Positions 3,735 to 31,286 of a DNA stretch of 32,348 nt are shown piece by piece. How positions within the stretch are numbered: the first letter of the stretch is position 1; each line of letters opens with the position of its first letter. This DNA comes from a virus (lineage: Duplodnaviria > Heunggongvirae > Uroviricota > Caudoviricetes), in IMG/VR virus record IMGVR_UViG_2537562189_000010, one strand, 5' to 3'. The position numbers were made by a program, and so were the translations under genes. A model generated the notes under the pieces. That model did not search any database, was not told the origin of the DNA, and was given only the letters and a program-made list of their open reading frames with translations.

Positions 3735-4231
3735 AGAGGAAGCAGGGCGCTTTCATCGTCGGTCGCCATATTTAAATCCACGGCATCCTGAAGGATGTTT
3801 ATTGTATTTGTTGCTTCCTGTATTAATTCCCGTTTTTTATTCTCCGCCTCGCTCACCCGGTAAGCCTGTTCTGCCGCTTCATCCTTAGCCCATGATGACC
3901 CGTCCCAGCGGCAGAACTCCCCGTCCGGTTTTATTATGGTCACGTTTTCCGGTAACGGGCCCGGCTCAGTAATCAGTAAGGCGCTTCCCGACTCCAGACG
4001 CCAGACGGTTTTACCCCGGTGATCTTCCATGAGGTGCCAGGTGTTTTCATCCTCATCAAAGATAGCCACGTGTCCTTCAGGAATGTCAGGCGGGGCAATG
4101 TCCGTTGAGTGCGCAGGCAGTCCGGTATGCGGAGGGATCCAGGCATCGCCTTCGCCGATAAATTCATTTGTTCCGGCTGACAGGTTGTAGATTTTAATTG
4201 TCTGCGGGTGTTCACTCATTTTAAAGGTCAT
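3635..4231 (-). CDS. tail fibre assembly protein (P2 gpG / Tfa-like)
   Basis: 198 aa directly downstream of the tail fibre gene; C-terminal ...[28 protein letters not shown]... is typical of Tfa chaperones. Confidence 0.7.
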
Positions 4232-6291
4232 TATGCAAGCCTCACGATGTAGTTAAATGCGATGTTTTTAACGGTGTTTTCGGCATTACCGGTGGGGTTA
4301 ATGGTCAGGCCGTGACCATGTGAACCCAGTGCGATCGTGTGGGCGTGTTCGCCAATGGCTACCGAATGTGTGTGCCCCGGAAGGTTTACTGTCAGGTTTG
4401 CTCCGGAGCCCGGTCCGTATGCGGTCCAGTCGCCGCTGCCTTCCGGTGACGCGGTGGCGGTTCTCAGTGCTATGTTTGCAGAGCCTGAACCCGCGCTTCC
4501 TGTTGTTTTTGTGCCGTAATTGAAGGATGAGGTCGTTTTCGTGCCAAGGTTAGTGTTTGAGACGCTCCCCCCGTGGGTGTGGGATTTGATGCCGTCCTGT
4601 TCCTGTGACAATACCGCACGACCGCTGGCAGGTTTTCCCTTGATTGTCCAGCCACGCATATCCGGGATACGACCGTCCGGATAGGCTTTTGCCAGCAGGG
4701 GATATCGTGCTTTATCGAATGTCTGTCCCGCCATGATGGCGTAACCGCTAGGCGGGGTATCTGACGGCCACGGCAGGGGAACACCTGCGGGTAACAACTC
4801 ACTTGCAGGCAGTGCGCCGATGTCCTGTGGTGTGGGTTTGTTTTTGTCCGTGTAAGTGCGGTACCAGATGGTTTTTCTTCCCCGATCCAGTATCACCCCG
4901 GTAAATTGTGCCCGGTGTTCTTTTGTGGCCGGATCTGAATCTTCCAGTCCTGTGGTGATCCTGACTATTCCGCCGATGAGTTCGCCAAACACTTCAATCA
5001 GGCAGCCACCCAGGCAGATATCGCCATACCCCGTGTCAGTAAGCACGCTGTGCTGTGACAGTGAAATATTGGCCCTTAATACCCAGCTCCCCGTTCTGAA
5101 TGCACCGCGCTCATTCAGCCATTCCACGAACTGTTCTGTTGTCCAGCGTTGCCCTGCTTTACCCACGTATCCGTCAGCATCATAAACCCGGGGAGCACCG
5201 ATGTTGATAATAAACAATTCCTTGTTGGGGATGTCCTCACCATTGCGGTTTTTCGCAAGCCGACCATCGGCGTTGTCCATGGCGATCTTTATCGCTTTTG
5301 GCGTGGCTGCCTGTGTTTCTGATGTACTGGTGGTGGCGCTGCTTAACTGTGTGAAGCCCTTTTCTTTCAGCGTTGCGTCCGGGTGGTTGCGTGATTTCTC
5401 GTGTTTTTTCAGGGCGTCCAGACTGCGGCGCTCTTCCGGGGTTCCTCTGGGGCGCAGGTCGGTTACGTTGCCGTCTTCATCAATTTCAGCGATGGCACAA
5501 AAATATTGCTGAATGCCGTCCCTGGGATACGTTTTCCGTAAACGCTCCACCGTAACGTCCGGGTCGGCTGTTATGATTTCGTGCTCTGTCGTCCATTCAC
5601 TGGTGAGCGTACCGGTCCACCACACATTCAGCCAGATACGGGACGGGAAGTCTGGCGTGGTCAGCGGTATGTCTTCGGTCAGCTCTGCGCGTAATCCCTC
5701 CACGTAACCGGTCCCTTTGCAGAGTGACCATCTTTCGCCTTTTTTAACCAGCCAGCCGTCCCCAAAGAATGCAGCGTTACCGTAAATATCGATGTTTTCC
5801 CGGCGCTGGCGCTCGTCCATGGCCGCCAGGCGTGCCGTGAAGTCTATCTGCCAGGTCTGCGCCGGGGTGGTGATACCAGTGGCTTCTTTCGCACCGCTGT
5901 ACTCCATGAGCATGGAACGAACCAGCACATTACCTTCGTTACCGTTGTGGGTTCTGATTTTTTTCTGTGTGGGGGCGTGAACAATCATGGACAGCGTGCT
6001 GGTTGCTTTGCTGACCAGTCCCACCCAGTTAAATTCAAAATCACCCAGTTCTGCCCCCAGGGTGACCGAATAAACCACGGCATTCTCATTCACCACGCCG
6101 GTTTTACCAACGGCCTGGCGGTGAACAATCTGATCTTCAGGCGGCAGGGTTTCGTCGGGGGATACCGGCGTTTCCGGGTTGAGGTCCGGGACGTTTGCAA
6201 AAATAAACTCATCCAGCACAACGGGGGTGCCTTCCGCCGCCTGCCGTGCCTTGAGCCGGATAAAGTCGCTGGTAATTACAGATTTCGCCAT
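4231..6291 (-). CDS. tail fibre protein (P2 gpH-like)
   Basis: 686 aa; N-terminus [21 protein letters not shown]...[17 protein letters not shown] matches the conserved N-terminal domain of P2 H / Mu S fibres; Gly-rich C-terminal region. Confidence 0.75.
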
Positions 6292-8039: not shown

Positions 8040-8388
8040 AGTTCACTCTGGTGTTTATGCGTCCAAAATCCTGTGTCTCTGCCGTCACATGCAGCCTGCC
8101 CGGTGCCTCTTCGTTAATGAACACCGTCCCCGGAACCAGCCGTTCATCATCCTCAACCAGGAGGATAAGCCGGGTAATGATGTCGCTGCGCAGCGTCGGG
8201 CTGCGTTCGCCGATAAGCAGGGCGGCGATCCCGCTTTCGATAATGCTGTGCACCACGTCCTGGCCGATGCTGACCCGGTTATCACATCGCTGTGGCTCGT
8301 TGCCGCTGTTCAGCGTAAAACTGCCGTCAGTGATAAGCAGGTCGATGTAAAGCGATGGCGTGTTCATCCCGCGTAAAGCTCCGTCCAT
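8017..8388 (-). CDS. small baseplate protein (gpW / gp25-like)
   Basis: 123 aa, immediately after the tape measure and overlapping the J-like gene; synteny-based call. Confidence 0.45.
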   Translation of the reverse strand: MDGALRGMNTPSLYIDLLITDGSFTLNSGNEPQRCDNRVSIGQDVVHSIIESGIAALLIGERSPTLRSDIITRLILLVEDDERLVPGTVFINEEAPGRLHVTAETQDFGRINTRVNYERETGR

Positions 8389-23192: not shown

Positions 23193-23593
23193 GGTGTGTT
23201 CCTTCTGTTGGCGGTTGAATGCACATAGCGGGCAATTGCCGCTTTGCGGTTAATTGTGACCAGTGTTCTGGTGAGTTCTGCGTTGTGTTTGTGTGCCTGC
23301 TCTTCGTGGTACTGCCGCATGATTTTTCCGGCAGGCGTGAGCGGCTCCGGCTCCCCGTGCGGACGGCGCGGACGAACGGCGACAAGCCAGCTGCGGTTAG
23401 TGCTGTCCGGTCGTCCGTTGAGTATGTCGGTGATGATGGCCGTGGTGGTGCGATCGGGACTGACGACTGTGATTTCCAGCTCATCGCCGGGTTGTGGTCC
23501 CGTGGCAATGTTGTTCAGGGTCAGTAAGGGCGTGCGCTGGCGCATCATTTCGTCAAAGCGCTGGCGCTGCATGGCGCAATAAAAGCGGGTCAT
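23189..23593 (-). CDS. hypothetical protein, 134 aa, translationally coupled to the replication gene
   Basis: Start codon overlaps the stop of the replication gene (ATGA); function unknown. Confidence 0.45.
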   Translation of the reverse strand: MTRFYCAMQRQRFDEMMRQRTPLLTLNNIATGPQPGDELEITVVSPDRTTTAIITDILNGRPDSTNRSWLVAVRPRRPHGEPEPLTPAGKIMRQYHEEQAHKHNAELTRTLVTINRKAAIARYVHSTANRRNTP

Positions 23594-26109
23594 TGTGGCG
23601 CCTCCGTATTCGGTGCGGGGGTGATATCAATGCGGCGGGTGCTGTCGTTCCAGTGCGCGGTGCGCCCGTCAGCCAGGCGCACGCGGGCACCGTGCCGGAC
23701 GGAAACGACGGCGCTTTCATGCAGCTGCACGCCCAGCGCATCAAGCTCGCGGGTGATTTGTGCGGTGATGTGTGGCTCAGCGGTCAGTGCGACACTCACG
23801 CGAACGCCGTCAGCGGGCGCACTGATGCCGCCGTTTTTCACGGTTTCCGTGTCAGGTGGCGGGTTTTTCAGCTGCCTGGTGAGTTGTTTTCGCTCTGTGG
23901 GGGTCAGTGACCTTAACCATTCACCCAAATCACCTTCAGGCAGGGTAAGTCGCTGCTCCCTGCGTTCGTCCGGCTGCCTTTCTGGCGGGTCGTTTATGGT
24001 CAGATTCTGGTCAGGGGGACAGTTATTGCCACGAGTCCAAGGTGCGGCAAAGCCGCACTCAACGTCAAAACCCTCGTCCGTGCGGTCTTCGTTTTCCGGC
24101 TTACGTCTGACCAGTTTCCAGGTGTCCGGGTGGGTGCATATGGTGTAGCGCTCCCCGAGTGACGGGGCGCGGACGCCGTAAATACGTTGCGGGAATTCGC
24201 CGTAGTCGTTGGCCTCTTCGGCAGTTTCGTATGCGGTGCGGACCAGGTACGTGTTGCGGGGAATGAGCACACCACCCTGGCGGGTGATATAGGTGGCAAA
24301 ACATCCCACGTCGGCGGCGGCCAGTATGGCGTCAATGTCGTCATGGTCCAGACGCTGCGGGGCAGCCGGGTTACGGGCCATCTGCCCGGCAAGGCGGCGG
24401 AGTTCGCGCCATACCTGGCGGGGCGGGATACCGAAGAACTGGAACTGGCGGATGCGGTGAAGGGCAGCCCAGCCGATGGCGTTCTCCACGGTTTCGGCCA
24501 TGGTTTTGCCTGATTCCTTATCGACGTAAGGTTTGCCGGTTTTCGGGTCATTCCCCATGAAGGCGCTGGCGTCCAGGTTCTTACCGATATAGGTCGCGAT
24601 ATAGCTCGCCGGTGTGCCTTTTGCCGGGTCGATTTTTTCGCATTTAAAACGCGGGGAGATATCATCACCCAGCTCTGCGCGGTCCTCCCTGATGGCGGCG
24701 TTGCGCATGATTTCAGTGATACGGGCTTCGTTTTCCGGGCTGGTGAATACCAGCATGTGCCAGTGCGGTGTACCGTCGTGGTGGGGCTCCACTGTGCGCA
24801 CGCCGTACCAGCCCAGCCCGGCCTTGTTGATGGCCCTGCGGACGGCGGCGAAAAAGCGGTAAACCAGATAATCACTGGCATCACGTACCGTTGCTCCGCA
24901 GTATTTCGGGTTCAGGCTGCCGTCATCGTTCACGCTGTGAAAACGGGAAGGGGCTGTGACGGTGACGAAAAACGCCAGGTCGCCGCGTGCTTCGGCGACC
25001 TGCTCCATTCCCCGGACGCAGGCCATCATCTCGTTACGGCGGTTACGCGGATTAGAGAGACCTGCCCAGTAGATATCCTCAAGGCTGAACCGTTCTCCTT
25101 CTTCGTTCTCGATGTCCCAGGCCTTCAGAAAATCGCGGGTGCGCTGGCGTTTTTCGCGCCAGTCCAGTAACGCTTCATGGCTGATATATACCGACGTCTT
25201 ACGTGACACCAGGCCTGCGGCGCGTAACAGCTCTTCACGCCAGATGTCCCGGAGGTGTCTTAACTGACTGTTCCACCATGTCGCACAGGAAAGGCGCATG
25301 ACCGCACCCGGCACCTGTTCCGGGTCGGGGGCGGTGCGGCGGTCGGGCCTGATTTCCAGCGACGGCCAGCAGGGTGGCGTGATACCCAGTTTTAACGCCA
25401 TGTGTGCCAGTGGCTGGTAGGTCAGTAACCAGGTGAACAGGTCATCGTCACCCCTGCCGGTCTTTTCGATGACCTCATCACATGCGCGCTCCAGTGCGGT
25501 GGAAAACGCGGTGGCGGTCAGGGTGGCAAGGCGCTGGATTTCGTCACGGCTCAGCTGCGGCAGCATAAGCAGTTCATCCAGCCGTTCGCGGGCGGCGGTG
25601 GCCTTAAAGGCCGGGGTGGCAAAGCGTTCATTCACACGGGCGATACGTTTCAGGCGGGCACGCAGCCCGTGACGAACGAAGTTATCCGCCGCGTATGCGC
25701 TGTTGTTCTTAAGCCCTTCCCGGCGTGCGCTCTCCTGTTTGCGGCTCAGGCGTGCCAGGTCCCGGATGAGCGGACCGGCAAGAAACGGCGGCAGGGCGCG
25801 CAGCTCCGCCATGGCTTCAGATACCAGTGTGGGCGGATTTTCGCGTTTGTGTCGCGCCAGTTTTTCCAGTCTGATCCGACGCTCTTCGTCGTGGTAAAGA
25901 TGCGAATTAATTCGCTTCCCTTCGTCTGTGGTTGTCAGAAAGGCGACGGTTTCTTCATCCAGTCTGGCGTCAGTGCGAATGTCCTCGTTGATGTAGCTCT
26001 GAATGGCCTGGCGTAATGCAGTTGGCTGTGCCCTGCCGAACGTTTCAGGATCGATAACCGGCAGCGGGGCGTTCCACGGGTACGCCAGTTGTGCGTTATG
26101 GTCGCTCAT
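23590..26109 (-). CDS. A: rolling-circle replication initiator, HUH endonuclease (P2 gpA-like)
   Basis: About 839 aa from the first ATG (ORF track 23590..26118); contains ...GTPHWHMLVF..., the HUH metal-binding motif of P2 A / phiX174 A-type initiators. Confidence 0.85.
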   Translation of the reverse strand: MSDHNAQLAYPWNAPLPVIDPETFGRAQPTALRQAIQSYINEDIRTDARLDEETVAFLTTTDEGKRINSHLYHDEERRIRLEKLARHKRENPPTLVSEAMAELRALPPFLAGPLIRDLARLSRKQESARREGLKNNSAYAADNFVRHGLRARLKRIARVNERFATPAFKATAARERLDELLMLPQLSRDEIQRLATLTATAFSTALERACDEVIEKTGRGDDDLFTWLLTYQPLAHMALKLGITPPCWPSLEIRPDRRTAPDPEQVPGAVMRLSCATWWNSQLRHLRDIWREELLRAAGLVSRKTSVYISHEALLDWREKRQRTRDFLKAWDIENEEGERFSLEDIYWAGLSNPRNRRNEMMACVRGMEQVAEARGDLAFFVTVTAPSRFHSVNDDGSLNPKYCGATVRDASDYLVYRFFAAVRRAINKAGLGWYGVRTVEPHHDGTPHWHMLVFTSPENEARITEIMRNAAIREDRAELGDDISPRFKCEKIDPAKGTPASYIATYIGKNLDASAFMGNDPKTGKPYVDKESGKTMAETVENAIGWAALHRIRQFQFFGIPPRQVWRELRRLAGQMARNPAAPQRLDHDDIDAILAAADVGCFATYITRQGGVLIPRNTYLVRTAYETAEEANDYGEFPQRIYGVRAPSLGERYTICTHPDTWKLVRRKPENEDRTDEGFDVECGFAAPWTRGNNCPPDQNLTINDPPERQPDERREQRLTLPEGDLGEWLRSLTPTERKQLTRQLKNPPPDTETVKNGGISAPADGVRVSVALTAEPHITAQITRELDALGVQLHESAVVSVRHGARVRLADGRTAHWNDSTRRIDITPAPNTEAPQ

Positions 26110-26522
26110 GCGTCGCACTCCCCGGCAGTTGCCGCCTGAAACGCCGCGCGGTACAGCACGAGAAGGCGCTGGTATTCACCGATAAAGTCTTCTGCGGTGT
26201 ATATGCCTTTCACGGCCACGCTGTGCGTTGTCATTTCCAGAACCAGCGCCATTTCTGACGACGACCAGCTGATGGCGGTGCTGTCGGTTCCGTTGATGTG
26301 AAATAAACCAAAGCCATCACCATCGCCTTTTACGTCCACGCGGTAACGGTCGTCAACGGTGAAGGAGAAATCCCCGTATGTGGTGACGCGTCCGGCGGCC
26401 TGTTTACAGGCGCGGCGGTAATAGTCGTGCCAGTCGTTCAGGCGGGAAGCCAGCCGGGGATCCACTGCCCACATCCAGTTAAAAAAATCCTGAATATCTG
26501 AAAGTCCCTTAACGCTCTTCAT
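26106..26522 (-). CDS. hypothetical protein, 138 aa, directly upstream of and coupled to the replication gene
   Basis: ATG preceded by GGAGG; its stop overlaps the replication gene ATG; its ribosome-binding site lies at the boundary of the tandem repeat. Confidence 0.5.
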   Translation of the reverse strand: MKSVKGLSDIQDFFNWMWAVDPRLASRLNDWHDYYRRACKQAAGRVTTYGDFSFTVDDRYRVDVKGDGDGFGLFHINGTDSTAISWSSSEMALVLEMTTHSVAVKGIYTAEDFIGEYQRLLVLYRAAFQAATAGECDA

Positions 26523-26590
26523 GAGAACCTCCGGTAACAGACGTGCGGAAGCCTCCCGCGCACGTGTGCGGGATGGCTTCAGGATGTTGT

Positions 26591-26818
26591 TTAGTGGTGG
26601 TGTTGCTGGTTGATAAGGTCCTGCAGTTCTGCCAGGTCTTCGGCCAGATAGCTGAAGACTGCCGCGTAATACCCGGCAGCGATACCGTCGTTAAGTCGGT
26701 GTAATACGTTTGACTGCATGATGAAGGAGACAGATGCAGCCCGATGGAGTCTGCGGTTGATTTCTGTGCGGATGTGAAGACGCTCAGCGCGGGCGCGCTG
26801 TTGTTTGCGGTTTGCCAT
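26591..26818 (-). CDS. 75-aa Arg-rich protein, copy 1 (unknown function; candidate RNA-controlled effector)
   Basis: Identical in protein sequence to copy 2 despite synonymous nucleotide changes; AAGAGG Shine-Dalgarno; basic N-terminus, acidic C-terminus ending in HHH. Confidence 0.7.
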   Translation of the reverse strand: MANRKQQRARAERLHIRTEINRRLHRAASVSFIMQSNVLHRLNDGIAAGYYAAVFSYLAEDLAELQDLINQQHHH

Positions 26819-27132
26819 GGTGTTTGGCCTCTTGTAGTAAGTTGTGAAAACTCACCAACCCGAGGCGGTAATCTCAGGGTGGCGAGACGTACAGGGTTAC
26901 CACAACCGGCTACAAGAGATCCCGGCCCGACCGAAGTCGGCCCCGTACGCCCCGCCATAATTCTGACGCAAAAAAGACGTGGCGATACAGTACGCACAAA
27001 AAAACCGCTGGCGCGGTTGTGCGCTCTTGTAGTCGGCGGGGTGGTAATCCCGGCACCCGTTTTATGAGGTGCGGGAAAACTGTAACCCGACCAGGCGAAC
27101 GCTGGCAAGCGGTTTTTTTGTGTGTGCATGGA
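26819..27132 (-). ncRNA. structured leader / antisense-type regulatory RNA region, copy 1 (c4/CI-like architecture)
   Basis: CTCTTGTAG (about 26829-26837) and again (about 27024-27032) are each the reverse complement of CTACAAGAG (about 26911-26919); GGTAA/TTACC inner pairing; minus-strand hairpin plus T7 terminator; UUCG-loop hairpin. Confidence 0.5.
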
Positions 27133-27202
27133 GAACGAACCTCCGGTAACAGACGTGCGGAAGCCTCCCGCGCACGGGTGCGGGATGGCTTCAGGATGTT
27201 GT

Positions 27203-27430
27203 TTAGTGGTGGTGTTGCTGGTTGATAAGGTCCTGCAGTTCTGCCAGGTCTTCGGCCAGATAGCTGAAGACTGCCGCGTAATACCCGGCAGCGATACCGT
27301 CGTTAAGTCGGTGTAATACGTTTGACTGCATGATGAAGGAGACAGATGCAGCCCGATGGAGTCTGCGGTTGATTTCAGTCCGGATGTGAAGACGCTCAGC
27401 GCGGGCGCGCTGTTGCTTGCGGTTTGCCAT
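27203..27430 (-). CDS. 75-aa Arg-rich protein, copy 2
   Basis: Same protein as copy 1; the only nucleotide differences are AAA/AAG (Lys), CGC/CGG (Arg) and ACA/ACT (Thr). Confidence 0.7.
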   Translation of the reverse strand: MANRKQQRARAERLHIRTEINRRLHRAASVSFIMQSNVLHRLNDGIAAGYYAAVFSYLAEDLAELQDLINQQHHH

Positions 27431-27745
27431 GGTGTGGCCTCTTGTGTAGTAAGTTTTGAAAACTCACCATCCAGAGGTTGCAATTCTGGGTGGTGAGACG
27501 TACAGGGTTGCAACCACCGGCTACACAAGACCCCGGCCCGACCGAAGTCGGCCCTGTACGCCCCACCATAATTCTGACGCGAAAAAGATGTGACGATGCG
27601 GTACGCACAAAAAAACCGCTGGCGCGGTTGTGCGCTTGTGTAGTCAGCGGGGGTTGCAATCCCGGCACCCGTTTTATGAGGTGCGGGAAAACTGTAACCC
27701 GACCAGGCGAACGCTGGCAAGCGGTTTTTTTGTGTGTGCATGTTC
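27431..27745 (-). ncRNA. structured leader / antisense-type regulatory RNA region, copy 2
   Basis: Segments CTTGTGTAG...GGTTGCAAT (about 27441-27485 and 27635-27660) are both complementary to GGTTGCAACC...CTACACAAG (about 27507-27529); the Shine-Dalgarno of the ORF lies inside the downstream segment; terminator (about 27609-27635) and UUCG hairpin (about 27535-27554) on the minus strand. Confidence 0.5.
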
Positions 27746-30453: not shown

Positions 30454-30879
30454 TCACGCAGCTTTTTTACTGATGCGTTTATTCCGTGAACCAGCTGCTG
30501 GCTTAAATAAAAAAAGTCGGTTTTCCCATTCGTGCCATTCTTGCGGTGCGTTTTCAGTGAGTCGATCGCAGGCTTCATCCCACGCTTTCCGGTTGATGTA
30601 GAGTTCGGCGTTTCCGCCAGGCTTGAGAGGGTCCGCCATGTACACAGCGGGTAATTTCCCTGCTTTTGCCATGCTCACGATGGCGTCAACGGTCTTGCCG
30701 ATATACATCGCAAACCCTTCTTTTGACAGGAGATGAGAAGGGTTTTGTGAAAGCCGGATTTCCTGGCGTTCAGGGGCTTTGCGGCCGGTCTTCAGGTGTG
30801 CGGTTTCTGGCGCATCTGTCAACTGATCGCACTGTGTTTCGGCAGGCGATTCAGGCGCGTTTTGAGTGACTTCTTGCAT
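30454..30879 (-). CDS. cox: Cox-like excisionase / early-promoter regulator with an N-terminal extension (141 aa from the first ATG)
   Basis: ...EGFAMYIGKTVDAIVSMAKAGKLPAVYMADPLKPGGNAELYINRKAW... parallels P2 Cox as recalled; ATG at 30879 has a GGAGGA Shine-Dalgarno; the ORF-track start at 30960 is a GTG. Confidence 0.6.
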   Translation of the reverse strand: MQEVTQNAPESPAETQCDQLTDAPETAHLKTGRKAPERQEIRLSQNPSHLLSKEGFAMYIGKTVDAIVSMAKAGKLPAVYMADPLKPGGNAELYINRKAWDEACDRLTENAPQEWHEWENRLFLFKPAAGSRNKRISKKAA

Positions 30880-30986
30880 CTGGTATCCTCCGTTATTGGC
30901 CCCTTTTTCGAATAGGGACCATGTAGAACCAATTGCGACTATTCTTGTGTTGCTATACACAAAAATTATTGGAGATTAGAAAAATT
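30880..30986. promoter_or_regulatory. immunity switch region between the divergent cox-like and C-like genes
   Basis: 107-bp AT-rich spacer; direct repeat AAAAATTAT (about 30961 and 30980); inverted repeat GAATAG...CTATTC (about 30911-30945). Promoter boxes not resolved. Confidence 0.45.
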
Positions 30987-31286
30987 ATGTCAATACCGCA
31001 AAATGAGAAATTAAAACTTATCAGAGAGTCCGAACGGATGAAAATGAAGGAACTATCTGATTTAATTGGAATTAATTACTATACATATCATGGCTATGAA
31101 AGTGGGAAATCTAAGATGCCTCTTGATTTTGGGATCCTTCTTTTGCGGCACGCTCGTTTCCGTAAATACCGTGACTGGTTTTTGTTCGATGAGGTCGAAC
31201 CAAAGGCCGGGCAGGTGGTACCGGCTCTCGCACACATTGGGCAAAGCGAAGCGGAATCATCCCACTCCGGCAAGAAGACTGGTTAA
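30987..31286 (+). CDS. C: immunity repressor (P2 C-like), 99 aa
   Basis: Same length as P2 C; central ...YESGKS... and C-terminal ...PALAHIGQSEAESSHSGKKTG resemble P2 C as recalled; upstream of and co-directional with int. Confidence 0.7.
   Translation: MSIPQNEKLKLIRESERMKMKELSDLIGINYYTYHGYESGKSKMPLDFGILLLRHARFRKYRDWFLFDEVEPKAGQVVPALAHIGQSEAESSHSGKKTG

Follow-up and report, generated by a model that had tools for sequence, protein, structure and literature searches.

A candidate P4 epsilon-family antirepressor gene under proposed C4 antisense RNA control in a P2-like prophage of Escherichia coli

Results

A duplicated 75-aa ORF upstream of gpA in a P2-like prophage

The window analysed here is a 32,348-nucleotide stretch of viral DNA (IMG/VR record IMGVR_UViG_2537562189_000010), and all positions refer to it unless another genome is named. 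We found that it represents most of a P2-like prophage, and the carrier is a complete P2-like (P88/Xuanwuvirus-like) prophage of E. coli; many E. coli assemblies have near-identical prophages beside ppa. The 75-aa ORF under study and its neighbours were located as follows.

23590–26118, minus strand: gpA, replication initiator, the downstream gene of the operon (PF05840 Phage_GPA, E 1.9e-106)
26106–26522, minus strand: orf138, encoding 138 aa, which follows unit B and overlaps the gpA start (phrog_3237, function unknown)
26509–27741, minus strand: tandem repeat of two 612-bp units, unit A at 27121–27741 and unit B at 26509–27120
26591–26818, minus strand: second copy of the 75-aa ORF, in unit B, encoding an identical protein
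27203–27430, minus strand: 75-aa ORF of unit A, a putative epsilon-like derepression/antirepressor protein (translation, PF25738, P4 epsilon similarity, pN/pS, AF2 model)
30454–30960, minus strand: Cox-like regulator, the first gene of the early operon running towards the module (phrog_1831, phrog_272)
30987–31286, plus strand: P2 C-type immunity repressor, the presumed antirepressor target (phmmer E 6e-24 to PDB 2xcj/2l49, P2 C)
31317 to the window end: integrase

Ogr, portal and terminase lie beyond gpA, and PF10743 (Phage_Cox) was detected on the same Cox-like gene in near-identical loci. The initial annotation had placed the 75-aa ORF upstream of the replication gene, and the ORF positions together with the PF05840 match agree with this, unit B and orf138 separating the unit A copy from gpA. 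This arrangement was widely kept: in 71 of 72 loci gpA followed the epsilon-like gene at a distance of about 0.7 kb, and in 59 of 66 related loci a P2 C-type repressor lay upstream of the epsilon-like gene. The slot occupied by orf138 is variable, since only 32 of 72 related loci carried this ORF, and it showed no similarity to ORF151 of P4. No LexA box (CTGT-N8-ACAG) was found in the whole 32 kb window, in which no Tum-like gene or other antirepressor was recognised either. The related phage P88 was obtained after mitomycin C treatment (PMC5285337).

The module was detected in 1252 of 5426 complete E. coli genomes, with up to 4 modules per genome, and in 9 of 50,697 phage records; among isolated phages, these closest carriers are Escherichia phage P88, other Xuanwuvirus isolates and Citrobacter phage Shae_phiSM. 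A scan of genome contigs covering one genome per species returned 3 loci only.

The 75-aa ORF is a gene under purifying selection

The unit A ORF starts with an ATG at 27430, and the interval 27203–27430 includes the stop codon. Its translation was exactly as first quoted, with the basic N-terminus, acidic C-terminus and three terminal histidines that had been described. The sequence AAGAGG at 27438–27443, 7 nt 5′ of the ATG, forms the Shine–Dalgarno (SD) element. We found that ORF length was held at 73–76 aa in all 86 units from related loci and that variable sites in the first 70 codons were concentrated at third positions (59, versus 28 at position 1 and 27 at position 2). Furthermore, pN/pS was 0.39 in the frame of the 75-aa ORF, whereas the two overlapping frames gave 1.41 and 1.25. 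Because the low ratio was confined to its own frame, the ORF is a genuine protein-coding gene under purifying selection and not a chance ORF. The amino-acid sequence also has invariant motifs, and 138 protein clusters matched the protein.

A 410-aa ORF that spans both units in another frame (26509–27741, minus strand) was considered and rejected as a gene: it had no Pfam match, its pN/pS exceeded 1 where it overlapped epsilon and its start was missing in half of the loci. Long ORFs of this kind were also noted at 4060–4677 of locus L002 and at 8168–8584 of P4 (L003), and PGAP labels them 'ash family protein'. What the PF10554 'Ash' profile matched in P4 was not epsilon but the translated segment containing the C4/CI RNA and leader; a survey of P4-like satellites used PF10554 as its profile for 'epsilon' (PMC8628076, Methods). 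In the IMG/VR contig L009, at about 560–592, the start of an epsilon-like ORF runs directly into the Illumina adapter AGATCGGAAGAGCACACGTCTGAAC, and the contig is therefore chimeric or untrimmed there. A near-palindrome without a U-run, CCCGCAC(C/A)CGTGCGCGGG, comes after the stop codon of each ORF copy and before the ribosome-binding site that follows (27164–27184 and 26552–26572, minus strand).

C4 antisense RNA loops covary with the leader and with isrK

Each unit contains, in order on the minus strand, a promoter-like site, an isrK-like RNA with an intrinsic terminator, a C4 antisense RNA, a leader (55 nt) and the ORF. The elements of unit A, all on the minus strand, were as follows.

27691–27720: promoter-like site TTGCCA-18-TACAGT, ending 6 nt before isrK
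27603–27684: isrK-like RNA (RNA 27609–27684; Rfam RF01394, 59.6 bits, gathering score 50), with an a site at 27652–27659, a b site at 27635–27643 and an intrinsic terminator stem at 27614–27629 followed by a U run
27486–27573: C4 antisense RNA (Rfam RF01695, 78 bits, gathering score 45)
27521–27530: C4 loop b2, UCUUGUGUAG
27508–27515: C4 loop a2, GGUUGCAA
27476–27483: leader site a′, UUGCAACC, forming 8 bp with C4 a2, with covariation
27438–27449: leader site b′, whose pairing sequence CUACACAAGA occupies 27440–27449, overlapping the SD and forming 10 contiguous bp with C4 b2

The corresponding elements of unit B, also on the minus strand, were as follows.

26992–27108: isrK and promoter-like site, with isrK at 26998–27072 (RF01394, 65.0 bits) and the promoter-like site at 27079–27108
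27041–27047 and 27024–27032: a site and b site of isrK, which also has a terminator
26875–26962: C4 antisense RNA (RF01695, 80.4 bits)
26910–26919: C4 loop b2, UCUCUUGUAG
26897–26903: C4 loop a2, GUGGUAA
26828–26871: leader, with b′ CUACAAGAGG at 26828–26837 covering the SD at 26828–26833, and a′ UUACCGC at 26865–26871

In unit A, the b2 loop UCUUGUGUAG is complementary both to CUACACAAGA in the leader and to CUACACAAG in isrK, and the a2 loop GGUUGCAA is complementary to UUGCAACC, which occurs in the leader and again in a hairpin loop of isrK. The pairings in unit B are those of UCUCUUGUAG with CUACAAGAG(G) and of GUGGUAA with UUACCAC or UUACCGC. The promoter-like pattern TTGCCA-18-TACA(T/G)T was present in 73 of 74 distinct loci and always 6 nt before isrK.

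Covariation was analysed in 74 distinct loci giving 65 distinct rows. For C4 and the leader, 93.8% of cells held a standard pair, compared with 67.5% in column shuffles and 37–49% when the partner was slid by 1–3 columns; 266 cells were changed on both sides (compensatory), with up to 5 pair types per position. The result for C4 and isrK was similar, with 94.0% of cells in a standard pair against 68.0% in column shuffles and 28–50% after sliding by 1–3 columns. Ten pairs were changed on both sides in the C4–leader test and 10 in the C4–isrK test. In addition, 19 b2 and 7 a2 alleles were found in 30 combinations, and the median duplex energy was −22 kcal/mol for cognate and −14 kcal/mol for non-cognate partners. 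The covariation establishes that C4 pairing is under selection. It also supports the view, put forward in the initial annotation, that the gene is an antisense-RNA-controlled product, since the C4 loops match both the leader and the ribosome-binding site and have changed in step with them from locus to locus.

These elements point to a route of control that resembles that of P1 c4 and P4 CI. The promoter-like site would drive transcription through isrK and C4 into the ORF, with the majority of transcripts ending at the isrK terminator and C4 RNA arising from those that read through. Loops a2 and b2 of C4 would then pair with a′ and b′ of the leader, and because b′ overlaps the SD we propose that this prevents the ORF from being translated; polarity may in turn block expression of orf138 and gpA from the module promoter. 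The a and b sites occur a second time in isrK, which could thus be a second target of C4 or a decoy that titrates it.

Several further observations concern these RNAs. In the IMG/VR locus L028 the C4 b2 loop is mismatched to its own leader and isrK, and in L045 and L011 isrK is mismatched to C4; these three look like recombinants, and their modules may be derepressed or decaying. The a2 loop of unit A with its flanks, GGUUGCAACC at 27506–27515 (minus strand), is its own reverse complement, so that self-pairing of the unit A C4 RNA is conceivable as well. Immediately upstream of the promoter-like site, and partly overlapping it, is a 21-nt arm, ACACACAAAAAAACCGCUUGC (27717–27737 in unit A and 27105–27125 in unit B, minus strand), which is complementary to the 3′ half of the isrK terminator plus its U-run (27603–27623 and 26992–27012, respectively). 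This pairing is part of the fold predicted for a read-through transcript (−57.7 kcal/mol, z = −3.9). All of the commonest sequence variants listed (60 of 74 loci) retained the core of the arm, both arms being invariant and showing no covariation. Such folding could allow transcripts from the early promoter to pass the isrK terminator while those from the module's own promoter stop.

Tandem units carry one protein behind two RNA specificities

The two ORF copies lie 612 bp apart and differ by 3 substitutions, all synonymous. Nearly all of the differences between units A and B fall in the six pairing elements, every one of which differs in allele between the units while matching within its own unit, and the cognate duplexes were stronger than the cross-unit duplexes. 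The same layout recurred in independent E. coli assemblies (L087, L088, L090, L091 and L093), including the complete chromosome CP027484.1, and is therefore not an assembly artefact; L089, L092 and L094 are single-unit relatives. Across the two-unit assemblies the first unit was constant and the second was of three kinds, its b2 always unlike that of the first. The b2/a2 alleles of the three second units were CTTTGTTGA/GGTTGC, CTTTGCTAG/AGTTCC and CTCTTGTAG/TGTGGT. Two units were seen in none of the 80 IMG/VR loci. As one protein is encoded behind two different RNA locks, a two-unit phage would be expected to evade either RNA immunity alone when it enters a cell and to impose both once it is a prophage.

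The protein is related to the P4 epsilon antirepressor

The initial annotation had recognised no family for this protein, which did not hold: it matched PF25738 'Derepression protein' (29.1 bits, only 2 bits above the cut-off of 27; E 8.5e-7; residues 10–66 on profile positions 14–70 of 95), and NCBI names its relatives in P88 and many E. coli genomes 'derepression protein'. The PF25738 model is built on epsilon of satellite phage P4, which itself scores 170 bits over its full length. BLASTP aligned the 75-aa protein with P4 epsilon at 36% identity over 50 aa (E 4e-9). The profile comparison and structure prediction that had been suggested as checks were also carried out. Comparison of the P2-like protein profile with the P4-type epsilon profile by hhalign gave a probability of 97.2% (E 2.8e-11, 61 columns). 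The AF2 model is a helical hairpin with helices at 2–39 and 47–73 (mean pLDDT 87), for which Foldseek searches of PDB and BFVD returned generic helical hairpins only (E > 1), so that the fold search was nonspecific. Sequence and profile similarity thus identify the 75-aa protein as homologous to P4 epsilon, an antirepressor.

The full-length epsilon architecture (95 aa with a C-terminal extension) was not found. The 75-aa protein lacks about 20 C-terminal residues and a 4-residue N-terminal insertion of P4 epsilon, and the part common to both is a two-helix core only. A PDB sequence search gave no match, NCBIfam held no family for the protein and PHROGs placed it in families of unknown function only. 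The family appears to be narrow, as an HMM search of 1.8 billion representatives found only 22 clusters (50% identity) and no new link.

P4 epsilon (E) is an antirepressor without DNA-binding activity of its own, and forms with the P2 C repressor a complex that is unable to bind DNA (PMC2995052). Two C mutations located on the helix 5 surface, T67I (sos) and I70N (c7), weaken the interaction with P4 E (PMC2995052). The prophage C repressor carries F and V at the positions of P2 C T67 and I70. Of the three roles offered in the initial annotation, that of antirepressor fits the data, given the epsilon homology found by PF25738, BLASTP and hhalign and the matching P2 C-type repressor in the same prophage.

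The other roles offered, a cell-division inhibitor or toxin-like host effector of the Kil or Icd type, drew on gene position. The 75-aa ORF occupies the first translated slot behind C4, as does the first ORF after CI RNA in P4, which we take to be kil, and in P1 that slot belongs to icd; a small, tightly repressed product would also suit such a role. We found, however, that the protein did not align with the P4 ORF, that Pfam, PHROGs and NCBIfam yielded no match to a division inhibitor or toxin, that its clear homology is to epsilon instead, and that its variable core tracks the phage immunity region (see below) and not a host target. A host effector of this type is thus very improbable.

We also weighed whether translation itself is what matters, with the ORF serving as a leader cistron: ribosomes on it would keep Rho from terminating transcription and would in this way gate orf138 and gpA. 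The ORF lies directly upstream of these genes in the same orientation with no terminator after it, and in P4 immunity the translation of kil and eta, which are nested genes, plays such a leader-cistron role (PMC4825925). Such a role does not account for an amino-acid sequence under purifying selection with invariant motifs (pN/pS 0.39), or for homology to a protein of known activity. As the main function we regard it as highly unlikely, although it could well coexist with an antirepressor role.

The variable core of the protein tracks the immunity region

Residues 24–51 of the protein form a core with two main classes, 'FIMQS' and 'QIMH', which we compared with the helix-5 classes of C, 'KY.DW' and the rest. 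The helix-5 motif spans the T67 and I70 positions that affect P4 E binding. The two classifications were concordant in 52 of 56 distinct locus pairs (table 19/3/1/33; AMI 0.62; Fisher p = 7e-11, a statistic that ignores shared ancestry). In contrast, there was little association with nearer sequences: AMI was 0.07–0.08 for the C4 loop alleles 100–200 bp upstream, 0.04–0.11 for gpA 0.7 kb downstream and at most 0.08 for the ead-like and winged-helix genes 1.2–1.4 kb upstream. These data point to a core class that tracks the C/Cox immunity switch region as a whole, 4 kb away, and not its immediate neighbours. The association with Cox was equally strong (AMI 0.4–0.6) and integrase was also associated (about 0.3), and therefore Cox may be the partner, or residual linkage may account for the signal. 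There were 3 core types against 14 repressor types. At the level of whole proteins, a Mantel comparison of epsilon with C was significant but no stronger than that with integrase or gpA; class-level tests were therefore used, with neighbouring genes as controls.

The match between core and repressor classes also bears on which repressor would be bound. The protein might be an antirepressor whose main target is the repressor of another element, that is, an entry weapon that induces or overrides resident P2-like prophages of the same class. P4 epsilon acts in trans on the P2 repressor of its helper and Ant of P1/P7 acts across immunity types; many C4 alleles and tandem units of differing specificity would make most sense in phage–phage encounters, and an E. 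coli genome can hold up to 4 modules. Nevertheless, the core class matches the repressor class of the same genome in 52 of 56 loci, which would make the phage's own repressor a target as well. One role does not preclude the other, and we consider it unlikely that a foreign repressor is the main target.

Comparison with known C4-controlled systems

On the basis of sequence and gene order, the module belongs to the known C4-gated antirepressor systems, as found in P1, P4 and Gifsy-1. The P4 immunity region has the same series of elements, namely a promoter-like site, isrK, C4, a leader with a′ and b′, b′ over the SD, epsilon and a replication gene (isrK 8692–8615; C4, or CI RNA, 8507–8420; an intervening ORF starting at 8365; epsilon 8175–7888, in P4 coordinates). 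Its promoter-like sequence, TTGCCT ... TATAGT, stands at the same position relative to isrK and is presumably PLE. The proteins are homologous and the target repressor family, P2 C, would be the same. That isrK corresponds to seqA of P4, and C4 to its CI RNA, has already been published (PMC3632133, PMC4825925). The systems differ in that P4 is a satellite, whereas the present carrier is a complete helper-type P2-like phage; epsilon is the second gene in P4, 245 nt from C4, and the first gene here, 55 nt from C4; the P4 protein has 95 aa instead of 75; the replication gene is the alpha primase in P4 and gpA here; and a tandem duplication is found here.

Among 80 P4-like loci (L095–L174) epsilon was 97–99% conserved, and the C4 loop alleles were polymorphic and shuffled, with at least 12 combinations. 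Cross-talk with P4-like satellites through common C4 alleles was considered and rejected, as 0 of 12 combinations from these loci occurred in the P2-like set, and the two sets had no observed loop allele in common.

The immI region of P1/P7 likewise has a C4-family RNA (Rfam RF01695) that controls an antirepressor. Two loops of c4 pair upstream of the first gene in P1/P7, one of them covering the ribosome-binding site, and heteroimmunity between these phages arises from loop/target allele differences alone. Ant, however, is unrelated in sequence to the 75-aa protein, the icd-like cistron is absent here, and the repressor is C1 in P1 and of the P2 C type here. The isrK–orf45–anrP region of Gifsy-1 (Salmonella) shares an isrK with its own promoter, a leaky terminator, the C4-like processed RNA STnc1160 and an antirepressor gene (PMC4825925), and isrK has been called a structural homologue of P4 seqA (PMC4825925). 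Gifsy-1 differs in being lambdoid, with IsrK acting in trans to activate translation of AnrP, a protein of a different family (PMC4825925). Tum of phage 186 is also a small antirepressor that a P2-like phage uses to leave lysogeny, but it acts on the 186 CI-type repressor under LexA control, whereas the present module has a P2 C-type repressor, antisense RNA control and no LexA box.

Four features seem to be undescribed in the literature that we searched: a complete helper-type P2-like phage as the host of such a module, a position of the gene directly behind C4, a class-level match of the protein to its own C/Cox region, and tandem units of differing specificity.

Discussion

Our preferred reading, to which we assign a probability of roughly 0.7, is that the product of the 75-aa ORF is a small antirepressor, a helical hairpin of the P4 epsilon family, that belongs to a P2-like prophage and is controlled by C4 RNA. 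By analogy with P4 epsilon, the protein would bind the phage's own P2 C-type repressor, or a repressor of the same class in a resident prophage, with the contact on the helix-5 side of C and not on its DNA-binding part. The repressor would then leave its operator, derepressing the early promoter and opening the early operon. In a lysogen, C4 would hold the antirepressor off. In a cell without the cognate C4, whether on fresh infection or in a superinfected lysogen with another C4 allele, the protein would be made and lytic growth favoured. Tandem units would widen both the range of resident RNA immunities that can be escaped and the range that is imposed.

A broader reading, which we offer tentatively and hold to be possible though doubtful, is that the module gives P88-like P2-type phages a third route for leaving or avoiding lysogeny, and that the cassette has an ancestry shared by P4 and the helper lineage. 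Such phages would differ both from P2, which is non-inducible, and from 186, which is driven by LexA and Tum. An epsilon matched to the phage's own C would sit behind a polymorphic C4 lock, isrK would be the key that titrates C4, and tandem locks would be the product of an arms race that widened escape from, and imposition of, RNA immunity. A survey of P4-like satellites gave delta as the one gene specific to P4 that clearly has homologues among P2-like phages (PMC8628076). Our comparison shows close counterparts, in helper-type phages, of both epsilon and the RNA immunity region of P4, and if the shared ancestry is true, P4 would gain a second helper-derived module besides delta/ogr.

Collectively, these results turn an unknown small protein into a candidate antirepressor with a named partner, in a module carried by about a quarter of complete E. 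coli genomes. The 19 × 7 loop and target alleles constitute a natural set of orthogonal RNA locks. Furthermore, the module suggests how prophages with a P2 C-type repressor and no LexA/Tum circuit could nonetheless undergo induction.
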